DNA from: Thiogranum sp. | GTDB taxonomy: Bacteria > Pseudomonadota > Gammaproteobacteria > DSM-19610 | Length of the DNA: 24,000 bases | Assembly: GCA_030148775.1 (NCBI GenBank) | Contig: JASBST010000020.1 | Coordinates: 102,674-126,673, forward strand | Reading direction: 5' to 3' | Shown: piece by piece, positions 3,338-24,000 of the stretch | Layout: each line of letters opens with the position of its first letter | Position numbering within the stretch: position 1 is the first letter of the stretch | Program-made: the position numbers and the translations under genes | Notes under the pieces: model-generated | Told to the model about the DNA's origin: nothing | Database searches by the model: none | Seen by the model: only the letters and a program-made list of their open reading frames with translations

Positions 3338-3382
3338 CGTTTCAGCAGACCTGTGACCGCCCGTGGCCGGTTCGAAGGCTGT

Positions 3383-4861: not shown

Positions 4862-4916
4862 CGATTTCGGAGCGCCTCGTCAGAGTTTGCGACGGCGGCC
4901 AATGTCGCACCAAAGA

Positions 4917-4934
4917 CAAGCGCTGGCAAGCGCT
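4917..4934. promoter_or_regulatory. Tandem 8-nt direct repeat CAAGCGCT-gg-CAAGCGCT, giving two AGCGCT palindromes 10 bp apart, in the divergent intergenic region. Candidate operator.
   Basis: Read directly: CAAGCGCT at 4917-4924 and again at 4927-4934. Each contains the self-complementary hexamer AGCGCT, and the centres are one helical turn apart. The repeat lies 56-73 nt upstream of the ligase ATG. It could also fold as an AAGCGC/GCGCTT hairpin. Function not demonstrated. Confidence 0.25.
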
Positions 4935-5027
4935 TTTAACCGACGACGCCCGCCGGTCCCGCATGCCGCCGGCCGGCGCCGGGCGAGCGACCACCCGGGG
5001 GCGCGCCGCGGAGCAGAAAAGACTTCC

Positions 5028-5050
5028 ATGCGGCCCGCTTCAGGCCGCAT
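5028..5050 (+). other. Perfect 8-bp stem / 7-nt loop hairpin in the leader of the GNAT-peptidase gene
   Basis: ATGCGGCC (5028-5035), loop cgcttca, GGCCGCAT (5043-5050). The stem contains the in-frame ATG at 5028 and abuts the in-frame ATG at 5052. The structure is certain from the sequence; the role is unknown. Confidence 0.3.
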
Positions 5051-5081
5051 TATGGGCGTCTCAGATAAAAGTTCTTTACCC

Positions 5082-6332: not shown

Positions 6333-6698
6333 ATGTCCAGTGTTGAGAGTTGCCGGGCCCCCGAGGACATTGTTCTTGACGAACTTGAGCGCGACGAGGA
6401 AGGCTTTCTGCTCGACGCCCACGACTGGCATCCGGGCCTGATCGAGCCGCTGGCAGCCGAGAGCGGACTGGAATTGACGCCCGAGCGGCTGGAGATCATT
6501 CGCTATATTCGCGAGTATTTCGAGACCAACATGAGTGTTCCGGAAGCCCGCGTGCTGCTCAAACATCTGCGCCAGATCGCCGGCGAGGAGAAAGCCACCC
6601 GACGCTATCTCTATCAGCTGTTCCCGCGCGGTTACGGCCAGCAGGCATGCAAGATCGCCGGCATGCGCAAGCCGCGCAAACTGATGTTGGACGTTTGA
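6333..6698 (+). CDS. DsrC/TusE-family sulfur-relay-like protein, atypical C-terminus (no penultimate Cys)
   Basis: 121 aa with AGGAG upstream. Family-typical core: EEGFLLDAHDWHPGLIEPLAAESGLELTPERLEIIRYIREYFE...VPEARVLLKHL...LYQLFPRGYGQQACKIAGMRKP. It ends in RKLMLDV instead of the canonical PKPTGCV. Confidence 0.85.
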   Translation: MSSVESCRAPEDIVLDELERDEEGFLLDAHDWHPGLIEPLAAESGLELTPERLEIIRYIREYFETNMSVPEARVLLKHLRQIAGEEKATRRYLYQLFPRGYGQQACKIAGMRKPRKLMLDV

Positions 6699-9768: not shown

Positions 9769-9949
9769 GACCCTTTACTAACGATCCGCTGTCGCGGAGA
9801 TGAGAGTACCCATAGTCTAGAGAATATCAGAACCTTTGCCCGCAACCGGCATCTAAGTTTCAGCGTCGGGTCGTTGATGCGCCGCCGGCGGTCTGTCTGT
9901 ATCTATCGGTTGCGGCCGTCGGCATCTGTTGAAATCAAAAGGATCGAGT

Positions 9950-11482
9950 ATGCGCGAATCATCGGCCGGGAGGACTCCGCAACACGCCCAGTTCGTCCTC
10001 TTCGGCGCCATGGGCGATCTGGCCTGGCGGCTGATCGGACCGGCGTTGTACAACCTGCACCTGGACGGTCACCTGCCGCAGGAATTCGCCTTGATCGGCG
10101 TCGATCGCGAAATCAGCGTCGATGCCTTACGCCAGCGCTGGCGCGACGGCGTAGACCGCTTTTCGCGTCGCGGCCGTGCCGAACAAGCGGACTGGGATTC
10201 GTTTGCCGGCCTCTTGCAGGTTCATGCGATGGATCTTACGCAGCCGGCGCAATACGAGGGTCTCAAGGTCCGTCTCGACGTCGCCGCCGAAAAAGCCGGC
10301 GCGCAGGTGTTCTATCTTGCCATTCCGCCGCGCCTGTTCGCCGCCGTGACCGACGGCCTGGCTTCGGTCGGCCTGCAGCGTCCCCGCGGGCGGGCACGGG
10401 TGGTGGTGGAGAAGCCGCTGGGCGACAGCCTGCAGGCGTTTTGCCGTATCGACCAGAGCCTGCGCAGCCATTTCGAGGAGTCCCAGATCTATCGCATGGA
10501 TCATTTCCTGGGCAAGGAGACAGTGCAGAACATTCTGGCGATGCGCTTTGCCAATCCTATATTCGAACCCATCTGGAACCGCCGCTATATCGACCATGTG
10601 GCGATTACCGTGGCCGAAAGCATCGGCGTGGGGCACCGCGCCGGCTATTACGAACACGCCGGCGCGCTGCGCGACATGGTGCAGAACCACCTGCTGCAGG
10701 TCATGTGTCTGGTGGCGATGGAGCCGCCGGTGGCTTATGATGCTGACGATATCCGCAACAAGAAGCTTGACGTCCTGCGCGCCTGTCGGCGTATTCCCGC
10801 CGACGATGTTCGCCGTTTTGCGGTGCGCGGACAGTACGCCGGCGGCTGGATTGAGGGCGAGGCGGTGCCGGGCTACTGCGACGAGCCCGATATCGCGGCG
10901 GGATCGAATACCGAGACCTATGCCGCGATCAAATTGCTGGTGGACAACTGGCGTTGGCAGGATGTGCCCTTTTATCTGCGCACCGGAAAGCGCCTGGCGG
11001 CGACCGTCTCGGAGATTTCGATCCGCTTCCGGGACATTCCGCACAATGCGTTTCCGGCCGATACGGGCCTGAACTCGCAACCGGTGCGGCTGGTGATCCA
11101 GATCCAGCCGCAGGAGGGGATCATACTGAAATTCATGGCCAAGCAACCCGGCAGTCCGCTACGTCTGCGACCGGTGGATATGCGTTTCAGCTATTGCGAC
11201 GCCTTTAAAACGGCCAGCCCGGGTGCCTACGAAACTTTGCTGCGAGACCTGCTGGCCGGCGACGCCACCCTGTTCATGCGCGCCGATCAGGTCGAGGCCG
11301 CCTGGTCGCTACTGATGCCGGTGCTGGAGGCCTGGGCGGCCAATCCGGCACTTGACTTTCCCAATTATCCGGCCGGCACCTGGGGGCCCGAGGCCGCCGA
11401 GCGCCTGGTGGCGCGCGACGGTCGCGCCTGGCTCACGCCAAGCGCGCCGCGTGCAGCGGCGAGTAGCGGGCGTTGTGACTGA
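9950..11482 (+). CDS. zwf: Glucose-6-phosphate 1-dehydrogenase
   Basis: NADP-binding N-terminus FVLFGAMGDLAWRLIGPALYNL. Active-site block RMDHFLGKETVQNILAMRFANPIFEPIWN. Also YYEHAGALRDMVQNHLLQVMCLVAMEPP. The ORF-track start at 9929 is a TTG. ATG 9950 has AAGGA about 7 nt upstream. Confidence 0.92.
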   Translation: MRESSAGRTPQHAQFVLFGAMGDLAWRLIGPALYNLHLDGHLPQEFALIGVDREISVDALRQRWRDGVDRFSRRGRAEQADWDSFAGLLQVHAMDLTQPAQYEGLKVRLDVAAEKAGAQVFYLAIPPRLFAAVTDGLASVGLQRPRGRARVVVEKPLGDSLQAFCRIDQSLRSHFEESQIYRMDHFLGKETVQNILAMRFANPIFEPIWNRRYIDHVAITVAESIGVGHRAGYYEHAGALRDMVQNHLLQVMCLVAMEPPVAYDADDIRNKKLDVLRACRRIPADDVRRFAVRGQYAGGWIEGEAVPGYCDEPDIAAGSNTETYAAIKLLVDNWRWQDVPFYLRTGKRLAATVSEISIRFRDIPHNAFPADTGLNSQPVRLVIQIQPQEGIILKFMAKQPGSPLRLRPVDMRFSYCDAFKTASPGAYETLLRDLLAGDATLFMRADQVEAAWSLLMPVLEAWAANPALDFPNYPAGTWGPEAAERLVARDGRAWLTPSAPRAAASSGRCD

Positions 11483-13841
11483 CGCCGCGGTCTTTGACGC
11501 CGAACAAGCCCCGGGGGCGCCGGGCATGCTGCCCAACTGGTGCGACGGCGCCAAGCAGATGGTCGGGACCAGCCTGGGCCCGGCGCGGGTCTGGTTCACC
11601 GTCGGTCAGGGCATCCTCAACGAAATCTATTATCCGCGCGTCGATATTCCGCAGGTGCGCGATCTCGGCATCATCGTCGCCGATGGCGACGGCTTTTGGC
11701 AGGAGGTCAAACGCCTGCCCGAGTGTCGGCTGAGCTGCGTAGCGCCCGGTATTCCCGCTGTCACCGTGGTGCATCGCCACGAGCGGTTTACCCTGACCCA
11801 GCGGTTGGTGCCAGAGCCCAACCGCGATGTGATGCTGCTGGAAATCAGTTTGCAGGGCGACGAGGCGCTGCGCCCCTATGTGTTGCTGGCGCCGCATCTG
11901 GGCGGCACGGGCCGGCAGAACATGGCCGAAGCCGGTCGCTTTCGCACCCGCCGCGTGCTCTGGGCCGAACAAGGCCCCTTCGGTCTGGCGATGGCGGCCG
12001 TCGACGCACATCAGGGCGATGCGTTGGGCGTGTGCAGCGCCGGTTATTCGGGCGAGTCCGATGGCTGGCAGGATTTCAACCGCCACGGCCGCTTGCGCCG
12101 ACGCTACCGCCGCGCCGGACCGGGCAACGTTGCCTTGACCGGTGCATTGCCGCGCCAGGCGGTGGTCGCACTGGGGTTCGGCAGCAGCCGCGAAGCCGCG
12201 GCGACCCTGGCGATTTCGGCATTGTTACATCCGTTTGAATTGATCTGGCAGCAACAGATCGCACACTGGCGCGAGTGGCACACGCGGCGTTGTGTGCCGC
12301 CGACGCCCACCCGTGGCAAGCTCCCCGTGGCGCTGGACGAGCAGGTGCGTACCAGCGCCATGGTGCTGCGTGTGCATCAGGATCAGACCTTCCGTGGAGC
12401 GTTGATCGCCAGCCTCAGCGTGCCCTGGGGCGAGCATTCGGAAGAACGCCCCGGTTACCATCTGGTCTGGCCGCGCGATCTGGTCGAGTGCGCCGGGGCG
12501 CTGCTGGCCTTGGGCGCCGACATCGAGGCGCGGGAGATCCTGCGCTACCTGATGGCGACGCAACGCGAAGACGGCAGCTGGTATCAGAACCAGTGGCTGG
12601 GCGGCAAGCCCTATTGGACCGGTGTGCAGCTCGATCAGGTCGCCTTTCCGGTGCTGCTCGCCGGTACCCTGGCCGAGCGCGATTCGCTCGACGGTATCGA
12701 GGTCGGCACCATGGTGCAACAGGCGTTGGGCTTTATCGCCACCCACGGGCCGGCCAGCCCGCAGGATCGTTGGGAGGAGAACAGCGGCGTCAGCACTTTT
12801 ACTCTGGCGGTCTGTATCGCGGCGCTGGTATCGGGAGCGCAGTTTCTGCCCAGCGCCGAAGAAGCCTTCGTGTTGGAGCTGGCCGACTACTGGAATCTGC
12901 GCCTCGACGCCTGGACGGCGGTGCGGGACACGCCGTTCGCGCGCCGCCATGGGGTCGACAGCTACTACCTGCGGATCATGCCGGGCGCGGCGCTGCTCGA
13001 CGAGTCCGTGCTCACACAAGTGCTGCCGATCAAAAACCGTCAGCTCGACCCCGGCCTGTTGCCGACCGAACAGATCGGGGTGGATTTTCTACAACTGGTG
13101 CGCTACGGACTGCGTGAGCCCGATGATCCGCTGGTACGCGACACCCTGGCGTTGGTCGACCGTCAGCTGCGCGTCGATTTGCCTCAAGGCCCCGGCTGGT
13201 ATCGTTATACCGGCGACGGCTACGGCGAACACGCCGACGGTCGCGCCTACAACGGCAGCGGACGTGGTCGTGTCTGGCCGCTGTTGACCGGTGAGCGCGG
13301 GCACTATGAGCTGGCGCGCGGCGGCGACGCCATGCTTTATCTGCGCGCCATGGCGGCGATGGCCGGAGACGGCGGCATGCTGCCCGAGCAGGTCTGGGAC
13401 AGCGAGGATATCGCCGCGCGCCGATTGTTCCGCGGCCGCGCCACCGGGTCGGCCATGCCGCTGGCCTGGGCCCACGCTGAGTATATAAAACTGGCCTGTT
13501 CCATCGCGCAGGGGTATCCGGTGGATCGGCCGCACACCCTTTGGGCGCGTTACCGTGGCCGCCGACCCGAGGCGGCGATCTGGTACTGGTCGCCACAGGC
13601 GCCATTGCGCACCATGCCGGCAAACGCCCGGCTCGGCTTCTGCCTGCCGCAAGCGGCGACGGTCGTCTGGTCCTGTGACGACGAGACGCCGGAGCAGTCC
13701 ATTGCCACCCGCGAGCTGGCCATGGGGGTGCATCTGGCACGGCTGCCGGCGCAGCCGCGCGCACGGCAACGGCTGACTTTTCGTCTCAAGGGTTACGGTG
13801 CGCCGGATACGCGCTATGCTGTACAGCTTGTTAACGAGTGA
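11475..13841 (+). CDS. Glycoside hydrolase family 15 enzyme (bacterial glucoamylase / glucodextranase / trehalase type)
   Basis: N-terminal glucodextranase-type domain (APGAPGMLPNWCDGAKQMVGTSLG...WFTVGQGILNEIYYP). (alpha/alpha)6 catalytic domain with the GH15 general-acid motif QDRWEENSG and the general-base region GMLPEQVWD. The ORF-track start at 11352 lies inside zwf. GTG 11475 keeps the conserved N-terminus and overlaps the zwf stop (GTGACTGA). ATG 11526 would truncate the conserved APGxPG block. Confidence 0.85.
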   Translation: MTDAAVFDAEQAPGAPGMLPNWCDGAKQMVGTSLGPARVWFTVGQGILNEIYYPRVDIPQVRDLGIIVADGDGFWQEVKRLPECRLSCVAPGIPAVTVVHRHERFTLTQRLVPEPNRDVMLLEISLQGDEALRPYVLLAPHLGGTGRQNMAEAGRFRTRRVLWAEQGPFGLAMAAVDAHQGDALGVCSAGYSGESDGWQDFNRHGRLRRRYRRAGPGNVALTGALPRQAVVALGFGSSREAAATLAISALLHPFELIWQQQIAHWREWHTRRCVPPTPTRGKLPVALDEQVRTSAMVLRVHQDQTFRGALIASLSVPWGEHSEERPGYHLVWPRDLVECAGALLALGADIEAREILRYLMATQREDGSWYQNQWLGGKPYWTGVQLDQVAFPVLLAGTLAERDSLDGIEVGTMVQQALGFIATHGPASPQDRWEENSGVSTFTLAVCIAALVSGAQFLPSAEEAFVLELADYWNLRLDAWTAVRDTPFARRHGVDSYYLRIMPGAALLDESVLTQVLPIKNRQLDPGLLPTEQIGVDFLQLVRYGLREPDDPLVRDTLALVDRQLRVDLPQGPGWYRYTGDGYGEHADGRAYNGSGRGRVWPLLTGERGHYELARGGDAMLYLRAMAAMAGDGGMLPEQVWDSEDIAARRLFRGRATGSAMPLAWAHAEYIKLACSIAQGYPVDRPHTLWARYRGRRPEAAIWYWSPQAPLRTMPANARLGFCLPQAATVVWSCDDETPEQSIATRELAMGVHLARLPAQPRARQRLTFRLKGYGAPDTRYAVQLVNE

Positions 13842-13865
13842 GCGAGCCGGTCGGGCCCTGCGTCG

Positions 13866-14336
13866 ATGGACAAAAGCAAAGGTATCAAGCGCCGCGGCGA
13901 TCCGCTGCCGGTGATCGGTTGGCGCGAATGGATCGCGCTGCCGGCGTTGGGTATCGAGCAGATCAAGGCCAAGACGGATACCGGCGCAAGAACTTCCGCG
14001 CTGCACGCATTCTACGTCGAGCCTTTTAGCCGAGACGGTAGCGACTGGGTGCGTTTCGGCATCCACCCGCTACAGCGGCGCAACGATCTGGTGATCGAGT
14101 GCATCGCGCCCGTGCACGATCAGCGCGTGGTCACCGATTCCGGCGGTCACGCCGAGCGGCGTTATGTAATTTCCACGCCGGTGCGTCTGGGCGAGTGGGA
14201 ATGGGACATCGAACTCACCCTCACCAACCGCGATACCATGCGCTTTCGCATGCTGATGGGACGCATCGCGCTCGATGGACGTTTTCTGGTCGATCCGGCG
14301 GCGTCCTATCTCCTCAGTCGCAAGTCTTCGCGCTAG
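13866..14336 (+). CDS. Retropepsin-like aspartic endopeptidase of the 'ATP-dependent zinc protease' / RimK-associated (RimB-like) family
   Basis: 156 aa. Family-typical N-terminus [33 protein letters not shown] contains the aspartic-protease D-T-G-A signature. It starts 24 nt after the GH15 stop. No clear SD. Confidence 0.8.
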
Positions 14337-14544
14337 CTCTCGTCCGCGCCGGACGTGCGCAGGCCGCGGGGGAACTTTCGCCGCAGGCCGGAATCTATTG
14401 GCTCGTTCTCACCAGCACGAGCAGAAAAGAGCAGCCAATGCGTATGAGAATAGCGGCCAATGGCGTGGAGCAAACGGTGTCGTTCCGGCGCGCTTTCCAC
14501 ATCTTCTTTTTCGATAGCGGTTTCCCCTGAGTCTTTCTTCCGCG

Positions 14545-14565
14545 CGCGTCACTTGACGCGTTTTT
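14545..14565 (+). terminator. Small hairpin + T5, candidate intrinsic terminator/attenuator in the 315-nt gap upstream of the ABC operon
   Basis: CGCGTC (14545-14550), loop ACTT, GACGCG (14555-14560), then TTTTT (14561-14565). Only the + strand has the U-tract. Confidence 0.35.
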
Positions 14566-14651
14566 AACTTCCGTCAGGAAATGGTTCCGGCGGTATCCCA
14601 ATGGCGCATACGCCAGGTCGACAGGCTGGCAACAAATTCAAGGGGGCGTAG

Positions 14652-15581
14652 ATGATTACGGTCGAGCATTTAACACGCAGCTATGGTGATTTTCTTGCCG
14701 TGGACGATGTCTCGTTTGGCATTGAGCGTGGAGAAATCGTCGGGCTGCTTGGTCACAACGGCACCGGCAAGACCAGCATCATGAAGATGTTGACGGGATA
14801 CCTTGAGCCGACCTCCGGTGTCATCCGGGTGGACGGGCTCGAAATCGGGCCCGACACCCGCGCGATTCAACGGCGGGTCGGCTATCTGCCGGAGAACTGC
14901 CCGGTCTATCCGGAAATGAGCGTGATCGACTACCTGGACTTCCAGGCCAGTCTGCACGGTGTCGAGGAAACGCAGCGGCCGCACGCCGTCGCCCGTGCCA
15001 TCCGCCGCAGCGCCCTGCAGGAAAAGGCATTGCAGCCGATCGACACGCTCTCGCGCGGCTACCGCCAGCGTGTCGGTGTCGCCCAGGCCATTTTGCACGC
15101 GCCCGACATTGTCATTCTCGACGAACCGACCAATGGCCTCGACCCGACCCAGATCGTCTCGATGCGCGAACTCATCCGTGAACTGGCGAAGAACGCGACG
15201 GTGATCGTCTCCACGCACATCCTGCAGGAGGTGCAGGCGGTCTGCGACCGGGTGCTGATTCTGCGCAGCGGGCGGCTGGCGGTGGACACGCGGCTGGATG
15301 CCTTGCAGCGGCAGTCGCGCCTGCTGGTGTCGGTCGACCGCGAAGCGGCCGAGCCGCTCGCCAGCGTCGAAGGCGTCAGCGCCGTGGAGGTGCGCGGGCA
15401 GGCCAACGGCCTGTGGCAGTACGCGTTGGAGGCCGCTGCGGACACCGCTCCCGCCGTGGCCAGCGCGCTCAACGCCGCCGGCCGGCGGCTGTATCTGTTG
15501 CAGCCCGAACACCGCGACCTGGAAACTCTGTTCGCCCAGGTCAATACGCCGGCGGCCGACAAGGAGGTGGCGCATGGCTGA
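14652..15581 (+). CDS. ABC transporter ATP-binding protein (ABC-2 / GldA-like subfamily)
   Basis: AAGGGGG SD upstream of the ATG. Walker A GHNGTGKTS, Q-loop, signature LSRGYRQRVGVAQAIL, Walker B IVILDEPTNGLD, H-loop STHIL. C-terminal ~85-aa extension as in GldA-type ATPases. Confidence 0.9.
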   Translation: MITVEHLTRSYGDFLAVDDVSFGIERGEIVGLLGHNGTGKTSIMKMLTGYLEPTSGVIRVDGLEIGPDTRAIQRRVGYLPENCPVYPEMSVIDYLDFQASLHGVEETQRPHAVARAIRRSALQEKALQPIDTLSRGYRQRVGVAQAILHAPDIVILDEPTNGLDPTQIVSMRELIRELAKNATVIVSTHILQEVQAVCDRVLILRSGRLAVDTRLDALQRQSRLLVSVDREAAEPLASVEGVSAVEVRGQANGLWQYALEAAADTAPAVASALNAAGRRLYLLQPEHRDLETLFAQVNTPAADKEVAHG

Positions 15582-18441
15582 GATCTGGCGTATCGCGCGC
15601 AAGGAGTTCGGCGGTTTTTTCGCCTCGCCCGCGGCTTATCTCTTTCTGGGTGCCTTCCTCGCGGTGACACTGTTCGTGTTATTCTGGGTCGAGACCTTCT
15701 TTGCCCGCAATCTGGCCGATGTCCGGCCCTTGTTCCATTGGATGCCGGTGCTGCTGATCTTCCTGGTGGCGGCGCTCACCATGCGCGCCTGGTCGGAGGA
15801 GCGACGCTCGGGCACGCTGGAGACACTGCTGACCAGCCCGGTGCGGCCGCTGCATCTGGTGTTGGGCAAGTTTCTTGCCGGGCTGGCACTGATGGGACTG
15901 GCGCTGTTGTTGACGCTGCCCCTGCCGCTGAGCGTCTCGCAGCTCGGGCCGCTCGACTGGGGGCCGGTCGTCGGCGGTTACGTGGCGACGCTGTTTCTGG
16001 CGGCCGCCTATGTCGCCATCGGCCAGTACATGAGCGCCCGTACGGACAACCCGATAGTGGCATTGATTCTTACCGTGGTGGTGTGTGGCCTGTTTTATCT
16101 GTTGGGCTCGCCCACCATTACCACGTTGTTCGGGCAATCCATTGGGCATCTGCTGGCGCTGCTTGGCAGCGGATCGCGTTTCGAATCCATTACCCGCGGG
16201 GTACTCGATGCCCGCGATCTCTATTATTACCTGTCAATCGTCGGCGTGTTTCTGGCGCTGAACCTGTTTTCGCTGGAGCGTCTGCGCTGGGCTGGCAACC
16301 CCGGCAGCCCACGCCACCGCCAGTGGTCGTTGCTGGTGGCGTTGACCGTGGCGAACTTCCTGGTCGGCAATCTGTGGCTGGCGCCGATCGGTTGGGCAAG
16401 GGCCGACATCACCCGCGAGCATCTCTATTCGCTCTCGCCCGCCACCCGCCAGTACCTGGCCGAACTGCACGAGCCCCTGCTGATCCGCGGTTACTTTTCC
16501 GCCAAGACCCATCCGCTGCTGGCGCCGTTGGTGCCGCAGCTGAAGGATCTGCTGGAAGAATACGCGGTGGCCGGCAAGGGTCACGTGCGCGTGCAGTTCG
16601 TCGATCCGCAAGACGATCAGGCCGCGGCGCAGGCGGCGGCCGGCAAGTACGGTATCAAGCCTGTGCCTTTCCAGGTGGCGAGTAAATATCAGGCTTCCGT
16701 GGTGAGTTCGTATTTCGATATCCTGGTGGCTTACGGCGATCAGTACCAGGTGTTGAATTACCGCGATCTGATCGAAGTGAAGGCCCGCGGCGAAGGTGAT
16801 ATCGAAGTGGGATTAAAAAATCCCGAATACGCCATCACCCGCTCCATACGCAAAGTCCTGAACAGTTATCAGGCCGGCGGCAATCCCTTCGAAACCCTGT
16901 CCAAACCGGTGAAATTCACCGGCTACATTTCCCCGGACGCGCACTTGCCGCAGCAGTTGGTCGCGCTGCGCAAGGATCTCAACGCCGTTCTCGCCGACAT
17001 GAAAAAGCAGGCCGGCGGCAAGTTCAGCGCCGGCTTCCAGGACCCGGACGCCGTCGGTGGCGCGCTCGGCAAGACCCTGAAGCAGAAATACGGCTTCTCG
17101 CCGCAAGTGGCGAGCCTGCTGGACCCGCAACCGTTCTGGTTCTATATGCTGCTCGAGAGCGACGGGCGCACCGCCCAGGTTCCGTTGCCGGCCGATTTCA
17201 GTCAGGCCGCGCTCAAACGCTCCCTGGAGTCGGCCTTGCAGCGGCTCTCGCCCGGCTTTCTCAAGACGGTTGCCCTGGTCAAGCCGCCGGCGTTCGGCGC
17301 CAACGCCAAACGTTACACCCGGCTGAACGAGACGCTGTCGGCCAATATGCACCTCGAGGATACCGACCTTAAAAACGGCCGCGTGCCCGCCGACGCCGAT
17401 CTGCTGCTGGTATTGGCGCCCGACTCGCTCGACGACAAGCAGGTCTTCGCCATCGACCAGTTCCTGATGCAGGGCGGCAGTGTGGTGCTGGCGACCTCGC
17501 CATTCGACGTTGACATCAGCGACAGCCTGCAGGCGCGGATGCACACTTCGGGCCTGGAGAAGTGGCTCAAGTACCAGGGGCTGACCATCGGCAAGAGCAT
17601 GGTCCTCGATCCGCAGAACGCCGCGCTGCCGGTGCCGGTGCGGCGAAACCTCGGCGGCATCAGCTTGCGCGAGATACGTATGCTGCCCTATCCGCACTTT
17701 CCCGACATTCGCGGCGCGGGCCTGAACGACAACAGCCCCATCACCGCTTCCCTGGGGCAGATCACGCTGGACTGGGCCTCGCCGATCAGCGTGGACAAGA
17801 AAGCCAACGCGGCGCGCAAGGTCACGCCGCTGCTGCATTCCTCGGCGCGCAGCTGGGTGTCGGACGATCTCAATATCGTCCCCGATTACCGTGCCTGGCC
17901 GCAAAGCGGCTTCCAACCCGCCAAGTCGCGCGCCGCGCAACTGCTGGCGGTCGCCGTGGAAGGACGTTTCGACTCATTCTTCAAAGGCAAGGATTCGCCG
18001 CTGGCTCAGGCGCCGGCCGAGACGCCGGGAGCGACGAAAGCCGACGCCAAAGGGACGGGCACGAAGGCGCCCCCGCCGATCAGCGGGGTCATCGAGCGTT
18101 CCCCGGGGGCGGCGCGTATTGTGCTGGTGGCCGCCAACACGTTCGCTGACGACGCGGTGCTGAATCTCGCCTCCGAAGGGCTCGGTACGCTCTACACCCA
18201 GCCACTGGCGTTTCTGCAGAACGCCATCGACTGGTCGCTGGAGGATCGCGGCCTGCTGACGATACGCAGCCGCGCGCAATTCGCGCGCACTCTGGTGCCG
18301 ATGACGCGCTCCGAGCAGATTTTCTGGGAGTACCTCAACTACGCATTGGCGTTGCTCGGTCTGGTCGCTGTGTGGTTGGTGCGGCTATGGTTGCGCGGCA
18401 ACGCCCGCGTGCGCTATCGCTCGATACTGGCGGAGGTCTGA
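15574..18441 (+). CDS. Fusion protein: ABC-2 type permease (GldF-like) + GldG-like 'ABC transporter auxiliary' domain
   Basis: The ORF-track start at 15298 lies inside the ATPase gene. ATG 15574 has a perfect AAGGAGG 6 nt upstream and overlaps the ATPase stop (ATGGCTGA). The first ~250 aa form a six-helix ABC-2 permease (MAEIWRIARKEFGGFFASPAAYLFLGAFL...EERRSGTLETLLTSPV...). This is followed by a TM helix and a large GldG-like domain (ADITREHLYSLSPATRQYLAELHEPLLIRGYFS...), then a C-terminal TM anchor (YALALLGLVAVWLVRLWL). Confidence 0.85.
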   Translation: MAEIWRIARKEFGGFFASPAAYLFLGAFLAVTLFVLFWVETFFARNLADVRPLFHWMPVLLIFLVAALTMRAWSEERRSGTLETLLTSPVRPLHLVLGKFLAGLALMGLALLLTLPLPLSVSQLGPLDWGPVVGGYVATLFLAAAYVAIGQYMSARTDNPIVALILTVVVCGLFYLLGSPTITTLFGQSIGHLLALLGSGSRFESITRGVLDARDLYYYLSIVGVFLALNLFSLERLRWAGNPGSPRHRQWSLLVALTVANFLVGNLWLAPIGWARADITREHLYSLSPATRQYLAELHEPLLIRGYFSAKTHPLLAPLVPQLKDLLEEYAVAGKGHVRVQFVDPQDDQAAAQAAAGKYGIKPVPFQVASKYQASVVSSYFDILVAYGDQYQVLNYRDLIEVKARGEGDIEVGLKNPEYAITRSIRKVLNSYQAGGNPFETLSKPVKFTGYISPDAHLPQQLVALRKDLNAVLADMKKQAGGKFSAGFQDPDAVGGALGKTLKQKYGFSPQVASLLDPQPFWFYMLLESDGRTAQVPLPADFSQAALKRSLESALQRLSPGFLKTVALVKPPAFGANAKRYTRLNETLSANMHLEDTDLKNGRVPADADLLLVLAPDSLDDKQVFAIDQFLMQGGSVVLATSPFDVDISDSLQARMHTSGLEKWLKYQGLTIGKSMVLDPQNAALPVPVRRNLGGISLREIRMLPYPHFPDIRGAGLNDNSPITASLGQITLDWASPISVDKKANAARKVTPLLHSSARSWVSDDLNIVPDYRAWPQSGFQPAKSRAAQLLAVAVEGRFDSFFKGKDSPLAQAPAETPGATKADAKGTGTKAPPPISGVIERSPGAARIVLVAANTFADDAVLNLASEGLGTLYTQPLAFLQNAIDWSLEDRGLLTIRSRAQFARTLVPMTRSEQIFWEYLNYALALLGLVAVWLVRLWLRGNARVRYRSILAEV

Positions 18442-18444
18442 AGC

Positions 18445-19560
18445 ATGCAAAAAAAAATTGGACTGCTCACTGCATTGCTGGCGGCACAATTGATCCTGGC
18501 TTTGGGGCTGGGTCTGGGTCGACCGGCGGTCAATGCCGCGCAACCGAGCACGCCGTTACTCGCGCTGGGCGACCAGCCTGTCGATCGCCTGGAAATCCAG
18601 GGTCCCGACAAGCAGACATTGCTGCTGCAAAAAACGGCCGGCCGCTGGGTATTGCCAGACAGCGCGGGTTTTCCCGCCGACAAGTCGAAGGTCGAACGCC
18701 TGCTGGGCGAACTCAAGGCGCTGAAGCGGGGCCTGGCCGTGGCGACCACCGCCGGCGCGCAACAGCGCTTCAAAGTGAGCGACGACGATTTCGAACGCAA
18801 GCTGGTGCTGGCGCAGGGCGACAAGACGCTGGCAACGGTCTACTTTGGTACTTCGCCGGGCCTGCGCCAGGTGCATGCGCGCAGTGCCCGGGACAGCGCC
18901 GTTTACACCACCGGTTTCGGTCTTTATGAGGCGCCGCTGGGCGCGGATGCCTGGGAAGACAAGACGCTGCTGAGGGTCCCGGCCGACGATATCCGGCGTA
19001 TCGAGGTGGCCGTCCTGGCGCTGTCGCCGCTGCAACCCCCGCACGCGGCCGCGGCCAAGAAGACCGCGCAGGGCGCGGCCGGACCGCCACCCTGGAGCGC
19101 CACCGGACTCGACGACGGCGAAGTGGTCGATCAGGCGCACGCGGCGGATCTGGTGCAGCAGGTGTCGCAACTGACCTTCGCCTCGGTGCTCGGAACCCGG
19201 GCGGATCCGGCCTACGGACTGGAACAGCCCGCGCTGACGCTGGAGCTGACGCTCAAGGACGGCAAGCGCGAACAGATCCGTCTGGGTCGGCGCGAGAAGC
19301 AGAACGACTATGTCTTGCAGGTTTCGTCCCGTCCCGAGTATTTCCGCCTCACGTCCGCCGCCGGCGCCGCGCTGATCAAATCGGCGCAGCGCAATCAGCT
19401 GGTGACGAGCGCGAAGACGTCGGTTGCGGCCAAGACCCCGTCGGCCGACGCCAAGGCGGCAGCGACAAAACCGCCGGCGGCGAGCGCAAGCCCGCCGCCG
19501 GCCGTTTCGGCAGGTGCCGTTCGATCGGCGCCGCCGTCCGCCGCCGGGGGTGCCTCATGA
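18445..19560 (+). CDS. Membrane-anchored/secreted protein, DUF4340-like (the usual partner downstream of gldG-like genes), with Ala/Pro/Ser-rich C-terminal tail
   Basis: GGAGG 8 nt upstream of the ATG, which lies 3 nt after the preceding stop. N-terminal signal/anchor MQKKIGLLTALLAAQLILALGLGLG. The position and ~370-aa size fit DUF4340, but the family assignment is from context and recollection only. The last ~55 aa are low complexity (AAKTPSADAKAAATKPPAASASPPPAVSAG...). Confidence 0.6.
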   Translation: MQKKIGLLTALLAAQLILALGLGLGRPAVNAAQPSTPLLALGDQPVDRLEIQGPDKQTLLLQKTAGRWVLPDSAGFPADKSKVERLLGELKALKRGLAVATTAGAQQRFKVSDDDFERKLVLAQGDKTLATVYFGTSPGLRQVHARSARDSAVYTTGFGLYEAPLGADAWEDKTLLRVPADDIRRIEVAVLALSPLQPPHAAAAKKTAQGAAGPPPWSATGLDDGEVVDQAHAADLVQQVSQLTFASVLGTRADPAYGLEQPALTLELTLKDGKREQIRLGRREKQNDYVLQVSSRPEYFRLTSAAGAALIKSAQRNQLVTSAKTSVAAKTPSADAKAAATKPPAASASPPPAVSAGAVRSAPPSAAGGAS

Positions 19561-20561
19561 CCTCGCCGCTGACCACCCCCGTCGACGCGACGTCGGATCA
19601 GACTTACGCGGCCGTTCAGCGCCTGCGGGGTTATCTGGAGACTGAAATTATCGGTCAGCAGGGCCTGATCGGGCGACTGTTGATGGCCTTGCTCGGCGGC
19701 GGCCACGTCCTGGTCGAAGGTGCCCCCGGCTTGGCGAAGACGCGTGCGGTGAAAACGCTGGCCAACGGCATGGAGGCGGATTTTCATCGCATCCAGTTCA
19801 CGCCGGACCTGGTGCCGGCCGATCTCACCGGCAGCGATGTATTTCGCCCCGAAGACGGTAGTTTCCATTTTCAGCGCGGGCCGATTTTCCATAATCTGTT
19901 ACTCGCCGATGAAATCAACCGCGCCCCGGCCAAGGTGCAGTCGGCGCTGCTGGAAGCAATGGGCGAAGGCCAGGTCACCGTCGGCGCCCACAGCTACCCG
20001 CTGCCGCCGTTGTTTCTGGTCATGGCGACGCAAAACCCCATCGAGCAGGAAGGCACTTATCCGTTGCCCGAAGCGCAACTCGATCGCTTCATGTTCCACG
20101 TGCAGGTCGACTACCCATCGCGACAGGCCGGGCGCGAGATACTACGCCTGGTCCGCCGGGAGGCGCTGGCCGAAGCGTCGGCGCTCACCGAGGTGGAGCC
20201 TTTGTCCCAACAGGCGGTGTTCGCCGCACGCCGACAGGTGTTGCGCCTGCATCTGTCCGAATCGGTGGAGGAGTATCTGATCGAGCTGGTCGAGGCCAGC
20301 CGCGCGCCGGCGGCCTACTCGCGCGAACTTGCCGACTGGGTGCGCTGGGGCGCAAGCCCGCGCGGCGCCATCTATCTGGAACTCGCCGCGCGCGCCCATG
20401 CCTGGCTTTCGGCGCGGGATTTCGTCACCCCGGAAGACGTGCAGGCGGTGGCGGCCGACGTATTGCGCCATCGCGTGCTGCTCAACTACGAAGCGCAAGC
20501 CGAGGGGGTGAGTGCGCAACGTTTCGTCACGGAGTTGTTGTCCCGTGTCCCGGCACCTTGA
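19557..20561 (+). CDS. MoxR-family AAA+ ATPase
   Basis: ATGA overlap with the upstream stop. Walker A GAPGLAKT, Walker B LLLADEINRAPAKVQSALLEAM, sensor 1 VMATQNPIEQEGTYPLPEAQLDRF. C-terminal lid GASPRGAIYL...ARDFVTPEDV. Confidence 0.92.
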   Translation: MTSPLTTPVDATSDQTYAAVQRLRGYLETEIIGQQGLIGRLLMALLGGGHVLVEGAPGLAKTRAVKTLANGMEADFHRIQFTPDLVPADLTGSDVFRPEDGSFHFQRGPIFHNLLLADEINRAPAKVQSALLEAMGEGQVTVGAHSYPLPPLFLVMATQNPIEQEGTYPLPEAQLDRFMFHVQVDYPSRQAGREILRLVRREALAEASALTEVEPLSQQAVFAARRQVLRLHLSESVEEYLIELVEASRAPAAYSRELADWVRWGASPRGAIYLELAARAHAWLSARDFVTPEDVQAVAADVLRHRVLLNYEAQAEGVSAQRFVTELLSRVPAP

Positions 20562-21468
20562 AACCGCCGACGTGTTCCCGTCGCTGGCGGAGCTGGTGGC
20601 GCTGCGCCGCGCGGCGCACGGCATCGAACTGGATGCGCATCGCCTGGCGCTGGCCGCCAGTTCCGGCGCCTACCGCTCGGTCTTTCGCGGTCGCGGGCTG
20701 GAGTTCGACGAAGTGCGGATCTACCAGCCGGGCGACGAGGTGCGCGATATCGACTGGCGGGTGACGGCGCGTCGAGGCCGGGTGCATACCAAGCTCTATC
20801 GCGAAGAGCGCGAACGCCCGGTGTTGCTGCTGGTCGATCTGCATCCCGGCATGCTGTTTGGCAGCCGTCGGCTGAAATCGGCGCAAGCCCTGCATGCCGC
20901 GGCGCTGTTTGCCTGGGCGGCGGAACGCGCGGGCGACCGTGTCGGCGGCGTGGTGGTGTCGTCCGCCGGCCATAGCGCCCGCCGGGCCGGCCTGCGCCAG
21001 GAGGCCGTGCTGGGGCTGCTGCAGACGCTGGTGGAGTTGCAGCCGCGCCGCATCCAGGCGCCGCGCGACGATTTGCTGAACGCCGGTTTGCACCGCTTGG
21101 TCCATAGTGCACACCCCGGCAGTCTGATTCCTGTACTGAGCGACTTTCATGGTCTTGACGGCGACGGCGAGCGCCATCTGCAGCGGCTGGCATTGCACAA
21201 CGATCTGCTGCTGGTATGGCTATTCGATCCGCTCGAAGCCGAGCCGCCGCCGCCGGGACGTTATCGGCTCGGCGTCGCCGGGCGCACGCTGGATCTGGAC
21301 AGCAGCGCGGTCGCCCAGCGCTGGCGCGAACGTTTTCAGCAACAGCGGGTGCGGCTGGAGCGTATCGCCCGCCGTCTGCGCTGTCCTTTGATGCCGCTGG
21401 CCAGCGATGCGCCGGCGGCGCAGGTGCTTGGACGCGGCCTGATCCGGCGCCGCCCGCTGGCGGCATGA
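20545..21468 (+). CDS. DUF58 domain protein (MoxR-associated, VWA-fold-like)
   Basis: Diagnostic block GAYRSVFRGRGLEFDEVRIYQPGDEVRDIDWRVTARRGRVHTKLYREERERPVLLLVD. The start is uncertain. GTG 20545 (GGAG 10 nt upstream, 17-nt overlap with moxR) is preferred. GTG 20512 and GTG 20572 are in-frame alternatives. Confidence 0.85.
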   Translation: MSRHLETADVFPSLAELVALRRAAHGIELDAHRLALAASSGAYRSVFRGRGLEFDEVRIYQPGDEVRDIDWRVTARRGRVHTKLYREERERPVLLLVDLHPGMLFGSRRLKSAQALHAAALFAWAAERAGDRVGGVVVSSAGHSARRAGLRQEAVLGLLQTLVELQPRRIQAPRDDLLNAGLHRLVHSAHPGSLIPVLSDFHGLDGDGERHLQRLALHNDLLLVWLFDPLEAEPPPPGRYRLGVAGRTLDLDSSAVAQRWRERFQQQRVRLERIARRLRCPLMPLASDAPAAQVLGRGLIRRRPLAA

Positions 21469-21932
21469 AGGGCTCGCCCGACCCGCTGGCAGCCCTGCGC
21501 CCGCTGCACACCCCGGCGCCGGTGTACTGGTGGCCGCCGGCGCCGGGGTGGTGGCTGTTGATGCTGCTTGGCGTCTCGCTGCTGGCGCTGTTCTGGTGGC
21601 TGCGGCGACGCCGCGCATTACGTCGCGCGGCCCTGTTGGAATTGCGCCGGTTACAGAACAACGCGCGCGACGACAGCGAATTCGCCGCCGGCGTCAACCA
21701 ACTGCTGCGCCGCTTCGCCCTGGCGTGTTACCCGCGCCGCCAGGTGGCCGCGCTGAGTGGCGAGGCCTGGCTGGCGTTTCTCGAAAGTCACTCCTCCGGC
21801 GGCGGTTTTGCCGCCGGACCCGGACGGGCGCTGCTGCGGGCGCCGTACGCGCCGCGCAGTGAACTGGATCGCGACGCCTTGGCCGTGCTGGCGCGGGGCT
21901 GGATCCGGCGCCAGCGGGTGGGCGCAGGATGA
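21465..21932 (+). CDS. Small single-pass membrane protein, DUF4381-like (typical third gene of MoxR/Bat operons)
   Basis: The ORF-track start at 21216 lies inside the DUF58 gene. ATG 21465 forms an ATGA overlap with the DUF58 stop. Characteristic N-terminus HTPAPVYWWPPAPGWWLLMLLGVSLLALFWWLRRRR, followed by a soluble ~100-aa region. The family name is from recollection. Confidence 0.65.
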   Translation: MKGSPDPLAALRPLHTPAPVYWWPPAPGWWLLMLLGVSLLALFWWLRRRRALRRAALLELRRLQNNARDDSEFAAGVNQLLRRFALACYPRRQVAALSGEAWLAFLESHSSGGGFAAGPGRALLRAPYAPRSELDRDALAVLARGWIRRQRVGAG

Positions 21933-22924
21933 TCGAGCTGGCTTGGCCCTGGCTGTGGCTGCTGCTGCCGTTGCCCTGGCTGGTGCGGCGCAGTTTTCCG
22001 GCCGCGCCGGCGCGTGTCGGCGGGGCATTGTATGCGCCCTTCGCGCTGGCGTTCGCCGAGGGTGGCGCCGGCCGGTTGCCCGCGAAAACGCCGCGTCGCC
22101 TGCGTCTGGGGGCGATGGCGGTCTGGATTTGTTTGCTGGCGGCGGCCTGCCGGCCTCAGTGGCTGGGCGAGCCGATCAACCTGCCGCAGACCGGGCGCAA
22201 TCTGATACTGGCCATCGATGTCTCCGGCAGTATGCAAACCCCGGATCTGGATCTTGACGGCGGGCAGGCGAGCCGCCTCGAGGTGGTCAAACAGATGGCG
22301 GGTGATTTTATCCAGCGCCGTCGCGGTGACCGCGTCGGCCTGATCCTGTTCGGCACGCGTCCTTATCTGCAATCGCCGCTGACGTTCGACCACCAGACGG
22401 TGCGCCGGTTTCTCGATGAGGCGGTGATCGGCGTGGCGGGTCGCAAGACGGCGATCGGCGATGCCATCGGACTGGCGCTGAAACGGCTGCGACAGGCGCC
22501 CGGCAAAGAGGCGGTATTGGTGCTGTTGACCGACGGCAGCAACACCGCCGGTAACCTGCGGCCGCGCCAGGCCGCCCGGCTGGCCGCGCAAAGCGGTCTG
22601 CGCATTTACACCATCGGCGTCGGCGGCGCGCAGATGCGGGTGCAGGGTTTGCTGGGGACCCAGGTGGTCAACCCGGCGGCCGATCTGGACGAAAGCACGC
22701 TCAAGGCGGTGGCCAGCATCACCGGCGGAGCGTATTTCCGCGCCCGCAACCGCCAGGATCTGGAAAAGATTTATCAGCGGCTCGACCGGCTCGAGCCGGT
22801 CGCCGGAAAAGGCGCGGTCGTGCGCCCGGTGACCGCGCTCTATCCTTGGCCGCTGGGAGTGGCTTTGGTGTTGAGCCTATTGCTGGGCGTGCGGGCGCTG
22901 CTGCGCAGGGAGGCGCGACCATGA
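21929..22924 (+). CDS. BatA-like membrane-anchored von Willebrand factor A (VWA) protein
   Basis: ATGA overlap with the upstream stop. BatA-type N-terminus MIELAWPWLWLLLPLPWLV, then a second TM. VWA domain with MIDAS motif ILAIDVSGSM, TAIGDAI and LLTDGSNTAG. C-terminal TM ALYPWPLGVALVLSLLLGV. Confidence 0.85.
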   Translation: MIELAWPWLWLLLPLPWLVRRSFPAAPARVGGALYAPFALAFAEGGAGRLPAKTPRRLRLGAMAVWICLLAAACRPQWLGEPINLPQTGRNLILAIDVSGSMQTPDLDLDGGQASRLEVVKQMAGDFIQRRRGDRVGLILFGTRPYLQSPLTFDHQTVRRFLDEAVIGVAGRKTAIGDAIGLALKRLRQAPGKEAVLVLLTDGSNTAGNLRPRQAARLAAQSGLRIYTIGVGGAQMRVQGLLGTQVVNPAADLDESTLKAVASITGGAYFRARNRQDLEKIYQRLDRLEPVAGKGAVVRPVTALYPWPLGVALVLSLLLGVRALLRREARP

Positions 22925-24000
22925 GCGCTTTTCATTTTCTGCGTCCCGCCTGGTTGCTCGCCGCTTTGCCGCCGCTGCTGTTGCTGTGGTTGTTATGGCG
23001 GCGACAGGTGCACGGCAATCCCTGGCGGATGTTGGTCTCGCCCGCCCTGTTGCCGCATTTACTGCTAAACGCCGGCCGCGGCGCACGCCTGCCGTGGGTT
23101 TTGTTGGGCCTGGGCTGGTTGCTTGCCGTCGCCGCGCTGGCCGGTCCGACCTGGGAGCGTCAGCCGCAGACCTTGTACCGCGCCTCCTTCGACCGCGTAC
23201 TGGTGCTGGATGTGTCGCCGTCCATGGCGGCGGCGGACGTCTCGCCGACGCGCCTGGCGCGGGCGCGTCTGGCCATCCGCCGTTTGTTGTCGGAGGGCCG
23301 GGAAGGACGCAACGCGTTGGTGGTGTTTGCCGGCGAACCTCATATAGTGGTGCCGCTGACCGAAGATGTCGCCACTATCGAGGCGCTGCTGCCGGCGCTG
23401 TCCCCCGGCATCATGCCCACCGGCGGCGATCGGGCCGCACCCGCGCTGCGTCGGGCCGGTGAATTACTGCGGCGAGGTGGCGGCGGTGCGAGTGCACAAG
23501 TGTTGTTGATCAGCGATGGTGTCGCCGATCCGGCCGACAGTCTCAACGCGGTGCGGGCGTTGCGTGCCAGCGGCGTGACGGTCTCTGTTCTGGGCGTCGG
23601 TACCGCGCAGGGCGCACCGGTGCCGCGGACCGAGGGCGGCTTCGCGGCCGATGCGCAGGGCGCGGTGTCGCTGGCGCGCTTCGAACCATCCGGTCTGAAG
23701 GCGCTGGCCAGCGCCGGCGGCGGACACTATCTGCATCTGGGGGAGGGGAAGCTGGCGCAGTTGTTCACCCCTGGGGTGGATCGCAATCCCGAACATGCCA
23801 AGGCCAGTCGGGGCGGGCCGGCGCGTTGGATGGAAGAAGGCCCCTGGTTGCTGTTGCCGTTGCTGTTGCTTGCGGCCGCGGGGTTCCGGCGCGGCTGGCT
23901 GGGCCTGTGGCTGCTGGTGCTGTTGGCGCCGCCGCAACCGGCACAGGCGTTCTCCTGGAAGGATTTGTGGTTGCGCCCGGACCAGCAGGCCAGCCAGTTG
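22921..24000 (+). CDS. BatB-like VWA protein continuing into a probable TPR (BatC-like) region; 3' end beyond right edge
   Basis: Absent from the ORF track because there is no stop in the window. My own translation from ATG 22921 (ATGA overlap with the batA-like stop) is open for 360 codons to position 24000. It reads MSAFHFLRPAWLLAALPPLLLLWLLWRR..., with MIDAS VLVLDVSPSM, LLISDGVA and SVLGVGT. A TM (WLLLPLLLLAAAGF) follows, then AQAFSWKDLWLRPDQQASQL, which resembles the start of the TPR part of BatB/BatC fusions. Confidence 0.8.
   Translation, partial: MSAFHFLRPAWLLAALPPLLLLWLLWRRQVHGNPWRMLVSPALLPHLLLNAGRGARLPWVLLGLGWLLAVAALAGPTWERQPQTLYRASFDRVLVLDVSPSMAAADVSPTRLARARLAIRRLLSEGREGRNALVVFAGEPHIVVPLTEDVATIEALLPALSPGIMPTGGDRAAPALRRAGELLRRGGGGASAQVLLISDGVADPADSLNAVRALRASGVTVSVLGVGTAQGAPVPRTEGGFAADAQGAVSLARFEPSGLKALASAGGGHYLHLGEGKLAQLFTPGVDRNPEHAKASRGGPARWMEEGPWLLLPLLLLAAAGFRRGWLGLWLLVLLAPPQPAQAFSWKDLWLRPDQQASQL

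Follow-up and report, generated by a model that had tools for sequence, protein, structure and literature searches.

Fusion of a GldA/F/G-like ABC cassette to a MoxR-Bat operon in a clade of Thiogranum-like gammaproteobacteria

The window analyzed here, a stretch of 24,000 nucleotides (nt) from a host that appears to be a Thiogranum-like sulfur-oxidizing gammaproteobacterium, ends in a compact string of plus-strand genes in which two cassettes are joined: an ATP-binding cassette (ABC) system of the GldA/GldF/GldG type with a DUF4340 gene, and a MoxR-Bat operon. The evidence favors shared regulation over a single machine, and we consider it reasonably probable that, through the fusion of the operons, a single predicted envelope-stress promoter drives two envelope modules that are otherwise independent. 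The fusion appears as a clade-specific, conserved and reversible variant, and not as a system of a new kind.

The two cassettes occur very widely and, to our knowledge, neither has a known molecular function; we know GldG-type ABC systems only from gliding phenotypes and Bat/MoxR operons only from stress phenotypes. A conserved operon with one predicted envelope-stress promoter, together with relatives in which the two halves are unlinked, provides an experimental handle on the cooperation of the halves, and the sigmaE-type motif and conserved upstream open reading frame (uORF) of its leader give a concrete regulatory hypothesis. If the halves turn out to be merely co-regulated, the operon would be an ordinary example of operon fusion.

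Genes and junctions of the fused operon

Direct reading of the plus strand from position 14652 to the window end gives eight consecutive open reading frames (ORFs) in a compact, overlapping string:

14652 to 15581, plus strand: GldA-like ABC ATPase, 309 amino acids (aa); Pfam ABC_tran; Walker A/B and signature intact
15574 to 18441, plus strand: fusion of ABC-2 permease, DUF7088 and GldG (ABC_transp_aux), 955 aa; Pfam ABC2_membrane, DUF7088 and ABC_transp_aux
18445 to 19560, plus strand: DUF4340 protein, 371 aa; Pfam DUF4340
19557 to 20561, plus strand: MoxR AAA+ ATPase, 334 aa; Pfam AAA_3 and AAA_lid_2; Walker B intact
20545 to 21468, plus strand: DUF58 protein, VWA-like fold without MIDAS (metal-ion-dependent adhesion site); Pfam DUF58; start chosen by conservation
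21465 to 21932, plus strand: DUF4381 single-pass membrane protein, 155 aa; Pfam E = 1e-42
21929 to 22924, plus strand: BatA-like membrane VWA protein, 331 aa; Pfam VWA; MIDAS DVSGS
22921 to 24000, plus strand: BatB-like membrane VWA protein, of which the window contains only the N-terminal 359 aa; Pfam VWA; MIDAS DVSPS

Apart from the passage from moxR to the DUF58 gene, discussed below, the genes meet as follows:

15574 to 15581, plus strand: ATPase/permease, ATGGCTGA overlap
18439 to 18447, plus strand: permease-GldG/DUF4340, TGA-agc-ATG, with GGAGG at 18432 to 18436, nine bases 5' of the ATG
19557, plus strand: DUF4340/MoxR, ATGA overlap
21465, plus strand: DUF58/DUF4381, ATGA overlap
21929, plus strand: DUF4381/BatA, ATGA overlap
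22921, plus strand: BatA/BatB, ATGA overlap

The eight genes, their junctions and their families had been proposed in an earlier, sequence-only reading of this DNA; the genes and junctions can all be read in the sequence, and Pfam confirms every family, the matches of all eight proteins exceeding the gathering score. On the ABC side, four such families stand in conserved order, ABC_tran, ABC2_membrane and ABC_transp_aux followed by DUF4340. On the Bat side, AAA_3 scores 208.9 bits on MoxR, which also matches the structure 2R44 in the PDB (E = 2.6e-94), and the DUF58 protein scores 117 bits; BatA and BatB both match VWA and VWA_2 above cutoff, and a motif check finds the MIDAS signature DxSxS in each.

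The start of the DUF58 gene had been left between two GTG codons, 20545 and 20572. The moxR stop lies at 20559 to 20561, and in-frame GTG codons are found at 20512, 20545 and 20572. All five fused loci that were compared keep GTG 20545, whereas the relatives have GTT or GTA at position 20572, and the DUF58 start is called 17 nt inside moxR in eight related loci, including L130, L140-L144 and L147 (L numbers denote loci throughout). Because the former codon is conserved across fused loci and the latter is not, the true start is most likely GTG 20545, with a 17-nt overlap with moxR.

The window cuts BatB, and its orthologs show what follows. At the syntenic Thiogranum locus L001, a BatB of 699 aa (VWA and TPR) is succeeded by BatD (BatD and DUF7939) and then by 6-phosphogluconate dehydrogenase; a TPR-bearing BatB followed by BatD also occurs in L140-L144 and L147, the last gene of L147 (560 aa) having no Pfam family in its record. 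Since BatD follows the truncated gene in orthologous loci, the operon is, to judge from them, a nine-gene unit of which the window carries the leader and the first eight genes; the count of eight in the sequence-only reading holds for the window but falls one short for the unit.

The predicted topologies are the expected ones. In a hydrophobicity scan of the permease-GldG protein, approximately seven transmembrane (TM) helices at the N-terminus and one at the C-terminus, an anchor, enclose ~650 aa of periplasmic sequence, and a TM scan assigns one N-terminal anchor each to the DUF4340 and DUF4381 proteins (residues 28-46 in the latter) and membrane segments flanking the VWA domain to BatA and BatB. 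In an AlphaFold2 model (predicted local distance difference test, pLDDT, 88.6), the DUF4340 protein consists of the N-terminal anchor, a repeated alpha/beta periplasmic body and a disordered Ala/Pro-rich tail. Solved relatives were sought by fold and by sequence for the DUF4340 protein, and also for the permease-GldG protein, and none were found.

Near the junction between the two cassettes, at 19557, no plus-strand terminator-like site was found, and the one sequence resembling a sigma70 promoter does not exceed chance expectation. An inverted repeat of 13 bp, rich in GC, at 19473-19502, in the Ala/Pro-rich tail of the DUF4340 gene and 55 nt 5' of the moxR start (fold z = -2.7 to -2.9), was set aside as apparently incidental, the corresponding positions of the relatives L001, L130, L142 and L045 not being unusually structured. 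The G+C content at third codon positions is 0.78-0.85 across the eight genes and similar in neighboring genes, so neither half looks recently imported or foreign.

Distribution and history of the fusion

Scans made from both sides of the junction return mostly unfused loci, which argues that the two cassettes are independent units in most of the lineages sampled. From the ABC side, a genome scan with a DUF4340 alignment yielded 49 loci, ~40 of which have at least 0.9 kb of downstream sequence. They belong to Gammaproteobacteria (Thiogranum, Ectothiorhodospiraceae, Halothiobacillus, Nevskia, Halieaceae, Lysobacteraceae, Marinobacter, Alteromonas and Acidiferrobacteraceae), Thalassospira, Magnetococcales and one betaproteobacterium; the closest relative, on which alone the assignment of the host rests, is a Thiogranum metagenome-assembled genome (MAG) with 73-94% amino-acid identity to the window proteins. 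According to tblastn searches with the window proteins, ATPase, fused permease-GldG and DUF4340 form a conserved three-gene cassette in ~45 loci, and the permease-GldG fusion is kept in all of these and in the top 120 of 4206 homologs. Approximately 35 of the 40 orthologous cassettes with enough flank stop after DUF4340, and the next gene varies and is often on the opposite strand; MoxR-Bat genes lie directly 3' of DUF4340 in only four of them (L001, L007, L008 and L045). From the MoxR side, a metagenome scan gave 80 loci with 56-66% identity in MoxR. The order MoxR-DUF58-DUF4381-BatA-BatB is conserved in these 80 loci (55 are complete), and neither GldG nor DUF4340 was found upstream of moxR in any of the 60 with at least 1.2 kb of upstream sequence. 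The description of ABC-GldG-DUF4340 and MoxR-Bat as separate cassettes is thus borne out, each occurring alone in most genomes sampled.

Inspection of the context of the closest homologs adds the fused loci L130, L142/L143, L144/L145/L146 and L147; four further MoxR clusters are probably fused too, judged only by largest contigs that equal in size those of GldG/DUF4340 matches. All 11 verified fused loci, from at least eight lineages, share the 4-nt ATGA overlap between DUF4340 and moxR, and a purine-rich, Shine-Dalgarno-like run precedes the overlap in the junction sequences displayed. Compared with the window, the proteins of these loci go down to 39-53% identity in DUF4340, 65-69% in GldG and 72-76% in MoxR, and the flanking genes change:

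Window, L001 and L130: zwf-GH15-RimB-like upstream; gnd downstream (seen in L001)
L142: GGDEF-EAL upstream; DsrC downstream
L144: MoaA upstream; Usp downstream
L147: HIT/DUF1488 upstream; Dus downstream

Since the identical junction recurs in eight or more lineages and in no fewer than four flanking contexts, the adjacency is not an accident of one strain. By the loci sampled, fusion is confined to one Thiogranum/Ectothiorhodospiraceae-like clade.

Neighbor-joining trees built separately for the two halves, ABC and Bat, branch identically, and this congruence indicates long co-inheritance of both halves. The trees contain three groups:

Clade I: L130, then L131/L140, then L001 and the window
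Clade II: L007, L039/L045, L008/L142
Clade III, ABC cassettes only: L002-L006, L049, L133, L135, L138

Two genomes document the reverse process. In GCA_030148915.1 both halves are intact at separate loci. The Bat locus, L140, reads RimK, GNAT-DUF3335, zwf, GH15, RimB-like, then directly moxR through batD, gnd and ARD, which is the window locus minus the ABC cassette; the cassette itself, L131, lies on another contig between a NUDIX gene on one side and an ATP-sulfurylase gene on the other. Since each half is nested among fused lineages in its tree, the split is derived. Moreover, the 275 nt 5' of moxR in L140 can be aligned with the sequence that precedes the ABC gene in L001, L130 and the window; moxR is thus preceded by the ABC leader, which argues that the coding part of the cassette was removed and its leader left behind. 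A second split is seen in L141 (GCA_041395565.1), where the Bat operon stands alone in the order DegP...HSP20-HSP20-moxR...batD. In L135 the cassette is alone behind an orthologous HSP20 pair (DegP-HSP20-HSP20-ABC...DUF4340), with 78% identical HSP20, and the fused locus L008 carries the same HSP20 pair 5 kb upstream. The HSP20 gene pairs are located at 7783-8720 in L135, 7725-8608 in L141, 3-881 in L008 and ~5100-5470 in L011 (upstream of the ABC cassette), often with DegP; such neighbors suggest an ancestral heat- or envelope-stress neighborhood. Taken over all loci, a single origin of the fusion, at the root of a clade of family rank, is most likely, and the simplest reading of its subsequent history is vertical inheritance, retention across changing genomic context and at least two reversals.

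Two further arrangements were seen on the ABC side. In L011, a Nevskia MAG, a minus-strand Bat operon at 11011-14614 (BatB, TPR protein and BatD) converges on DUF4340 with a gap of 69 nt; as Bat genes are missing from this place in another Nevskia genome (L134), the adjacency was set aside as incidental or a remnant. MAG MFD04944.bin.2.29 has three paralogous ABC-GldG-DUF4340 cassettes (L002, L003 and L049), two of them ~14 kb apart on one contig and none linked to MoxR.

The leader and the competing readings

Upstream of the ABC gene, the window contains a leader with three predicted elements:

14371 to 14398, plus strand: sigmaE/AlgU-type (extracytoplasmic function, ECF) promoter-like motif GGAACTT-N16-TCTAT, ~280 nt 5' of the ABC start; predicted
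14438 to 14530, plus strand: 30-codon uORF (MRMRIAANGVEQTVSFRRAFHIFFFDSGFP and stop), C-terminus FFDSGFP-UGA; predicted
14544 to 14566, plus strand: GC-rich hairpin (GCGCGTCACTTGACGCGT) followed by TTTTT, terminator-like, 14 nt 3' of the uORF stop

The motif agrees with what we take to be the ECF consensus of sigmaE/AlgU (-35 GGAACTT and -10 TCnnA/T, ~16 nt apart) and is invariant in the window, L001, L130 and L140. Of 51 cassette loci, 31 have its relaxed form, GAACTT-N15-17-TC, within the 400 nt 5' of the ABC gene (0.8 expected); in a stricter scan for GAACTT-N15-17-TCT the match usually lies 245-310 nt 5' of the ABC start. Halieaceae, Nevskia and Chromatiales are among the motif-positive loci; Thalassospira and Magnetococcales lack it. 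Among 74 unfused loci, 8 have the relaxed motif in front of moxR (1.15 expected). The derived L140 and L141 account for two of the 8; the others are unrelated stand-alone operons (6 of 72, ~1.1 expected), and because these carry the motif the ABC and Bat cassettes may already share a regulon.

Between motif and ABC start, the leader of the fused clade spans ~270 nt. Clades I-III preserve the C-terminal end of the uORF, FF[D/A]xGFP-stop, and most of the changes there are synonymous and fall on third positions (TTC/TTT, GAT/GAC, GGT/GGC/GGA), which is a coding signature; L140 has a disrupted uORF, and the uORFs of L144, L147 and L039 have diverged. It may encode a regulatory leader peptide ending in Pro-stop. 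The hairpin is a possible attenuator candidate; only the window and L001 have it in strong form, and L130, L131 and L140 show a weak stem or none, although a block CTTnAC...GTTTTnAC is conserved in sequence. The RNAalifold consensus of the leader is weak (-4.3 kcal/mol) and we claim no RNA structure; an Rfam search over the whole window found nothing that reached a family threshold. As far as literature searches show, the sigmaE-type motif and the uORF are undescribed for the GldG/DUF4340 cassette; searches on GldG with AlgU and on PA4037-PA4040 returned nothing useful.

The fused operon could work in the following manner. The first cassette would form a GldA/F/G-like ABC-2 exporter consisting of a cytoplasmic ATPase, a permease fused to a periplasmic GldG and a membrane-anchored periplasmic DUF4340 protein; it would act on some envelope substrate, with GldG and DUF4340 as its periplasmic parts. 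In the second, MoxR-DUF58-DUF4381-BatA-BatB-BatD, MoxR and DUF58 presumably assemble or remodel the membrane MIDAS-VWA proteins together with BatD, which is exported. For the Borrelia homolog BB0173, a periplasmic VWA domain is reported (PMC5700661); the MoxR of the window is cytoplasmic. Fusion would have placed the Bat genes behind the promoter and leader of the ABC cassette. One transcript would then start from the sigmaE-type promoter, overlapping stops and starts may couple translation such that the products are made in linked amounts, and expression would probably answer envelope stress. Physical interaction between the two modules is possible in this scheme and not required, because either half survives separation.

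Several points weigh against shared regulation of independent modules as the whole explanation. The single transcript, the sigmaE dependence and the translation of the uORF are all predicted. The loci that carry the motif are phylogenetically related, which inflates the p-values of its enrichment, and the trees are simple neighbor-joining trees from query-anchored alignments without support values. The members of clade III could be paralogs instead of lineages that lost the Bat half. Retention of the fusion through deep divergence and changing flanks would also be expected of a true functional or physical partnership, so that co-regulation alone may understate the link, and a functional connection that recurs is hinted at by archaea and mycobacteria, where a GldG-homologous family, DUF4350, is linked to MoxR/vWA genes.

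These last points lead to the strongest competitor, one trans-envelope machine in which the ABC-2 exporter and a GldG/DUF4340 scaffold work physically with BatA, BatB and BatD, assembled or remodeled by MoxR-DUF58, and in which coupling serves stoichiometric co-assembly. This is what the sequence-only reading had drawn from the adjacency. The persistence of fused order and ATGA junction in at least eight lineages despite changes of context, the congruence of the trees and the independent, recurrent linkage of GldG-fold DUF4350 with MoxR/vWA genes speak for it, as do a sub-threshold DUF4350 match in the GldG region of the window protein (E = 1.6e-5) and the Bat operon that converges on DUF4340 in the Nevskia MAG. 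However, each cassette is alone in the great majority of genomes sampled (most ABC cassettes and 60 of 60 distant MoxR-Bat operons are unfused); the fused clade itself lost the link on two or more occasions, with both halves intact and apart in GCA_030148915.1 and Bat alone in GCA_041395565.1; the adjacency is absent from the second Nevskia genome; and the archaeal and mycobacterial systems have no ABC transporter. A single machine does not follow from these data, and we regard it as rather unlikely.

Alternatively, a deletion or rearrangement may have merged two unrelated operons, with vertical inheritance alone preserving the arrangement, which would then carry neither selective nor functional significance. 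The restriction of the fusion to a single clade and its absence from all other sampled lineages would fit such a neutral join, as would its loss on at least two occasions (with both halves intact in the one genome where both were found) and a sister clade of ~10 loci with the ABC cassette only. What makes a neutral join distinctly unlikely is that the exact 4-nt overlap and the Shine-Dalgarno-like purine run persist while DUF4340 drops to its low identity and the flanks are replaced, a conservation that exceeds usual neutral drift, and that the motif in front of stand-alone moxR operons suggests a shared regulon.

A bolder proposal, for which we see a comparably slim chance, extends the single machine: the GldG/DUF4340 scaffold would be a partner or client of MoxR-DUF58-BatA/B/D, and the window operon, the archaeal DUF4350-MoxR-vWA operons and mycobacterial Rv3691-3693 would reflect one ancient envelope-remodeling or export machine, switched here by envelope stress through a sigmaE-type promoter and leader peptide. 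A role of the MoxR-VWA part in anti-phage defense or conflict, in the manner of the MoxR-vWA ternary systems and with the ABC part as an accessory, is suggested by a secondary Pfam match of MoxR to bpMoxR, the MoxR domain of MoxR-vWA-beta-propeller systems, but is highly improbable given that PADLOC matched just one of the eight proteins, the ABC ATPase, and this one only to generic ATPases, that no beta-propeller, effector or mobile-element gene is present, that the module is an ordinary housekeeping-type Bat operon conserved in 80 loci and that its third-position G+C content is native.

Genomic surroundings and comparison with known systems

At 9929-14336, 5' of the operon, the window has genes for glucose-6-phosphate dehydrogenase (G6PD), a glucodextranase-like GH15 protein and a RimB-like Zn protease. 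A gene for 6-phosphogluconate dehydrogenase lies downstream in L001 (18570-20069) and L140, which places the operon between pentose-phosphate and glycogen genes. The G6PD (9929-11482) and GH15 (11352-13841) ORFs of the window overlap by ~130 nt, with GH15 called from the first TTG; since this overlap is 8 nt in the relatives L130 and L140, the true GH15 start is probably further downstream. A GNAT-DUF3335 gene is located at 4842-6230, and RimK/RLAN and GNAT-DUF3335 genes occur near the operon in L130 and L140. The window further contains a DsrC-like gene (6333-6698, plus strand), which fits a sulfur-oxidizing host (a DsrC gene also lies 3' of BatD in L142/L143), a gene for an MprF-type lysyl-phosphatidylglycerol synthase (7114-9768, minus strand) and two long ORFs that overlap on opposite strands, 3353-4564 (plus, 403 aa, no Pfam match) and 3383-4861 (minus, 492 aa).

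The ABC half shares the ATPase, the ABC-2 permease and the GldG/ABC_transp_aux modules with GldA/GldF/GldG of Flavobacterium johnsoniae, and the best NCBIfam matches of the window proteins are indeed GldA, GldF and GldG. All three scores are far below the equivalog cutoffs, with 288.3 bits against 402.6 for GldA (TIGR03522), 176.3 against 288.5 for GldF (TIGR03518) and 122.2 against 389.85 for GldG (TIGR03521); because of this the cassette is better described as GldA/F/G-like than as a Gld ortholog. Unlike in F. johnsoniae, permease and GldG are fused into one protein of 955 aa, a DUF4340 gene comes next and the host is a gammaproteobacterium; a Pfam search of the other window genes found no gld, spr or type IX secretion system genes. 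In Pseudomonas aeruginosa, the DUF4340 gene is PA4040. In a preprint on SAR11, an orthologous group of DUF4340 proteins is predicted to join an ABC transporter complex. The proteobacterial cassettes annotated with a "Gldg family protein" and DUF4340 (~45 loci) have the identical three-gene order and the same permease-GldG fusion, but the cassette of the fused clade runs gapless into MoxR-Bat.

The second half has families and order in common with the Bat ("Bacteroides aerotolerance")/MoxR operons of Bacteroides fragilis, Leptospira biflexa and Borrelia, which run moxR-DUF58-batA-batB-batC-batD with or without a final batE, and with MoxR in Riemerella, for which stress and envelope phenotypes have been reported without a mechanism (PMC3557215, PMC5700661, PMC11834572). 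All features by which these operons are recognized in sequence are found, namely a MoxR of the AAA_3 family, DUF58, a small TM protein, two membrane VWA proteins with MIDAS, TPR and BatD, the last two in orthologous loci outside the window; the Leptospira-specific NCBIfam models of BatA and BatB score below cutoff on the window proteins. In contrast to the known operons, moxR is not the first gene here, has no upstream region of its own and is coupled to the ABC cassette in front of it, and BatB and BatC are fused (VWA and TPR) in loci of the fused clade, whereas known Bat operons have separate batB and batC genes.

The sequence-only reading knew of no described link between the two cassettes. 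We likewise found no literature description of an ABC-GldG-DUF4340/MoxR-Bat fusion, but operons of DUF4350, MoxR and vWA genes have been published (PMC5898192, PMC8191103). Makarova et al. 2015 (PMC5898192) describe them in most archaea, DUF4350 (arCOG01314) being a GldG homolog (HHpred 99%), and predict a role in secretion or membrane remodeling; in mycobacteria, the corresponding genes are Rv3691 (DUF4350), Rv3692 (MoxR) and Rv3693 (DUF58) (PMC8191103). DUF4350 matches residues 608-717 of the permease-GldG protein with 25.7 bits (E = 1.6e-5) against a cutoff of 30.4, the ABC_transp_aux match being stronger. The archaeal and mycobacterial systems have no ABC transporter, DUF4340 or BatA/B/D and contain S-layer or Ig-like proteins instead, domains of which Pfam detects none in the eight window proteins or the genes downstream in L001. 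What they have in common with the window is the arrangement: a gene for a membrane-anchored ectodomain of the GldG fold adjoins MoxR and DUF58/vWA genes.

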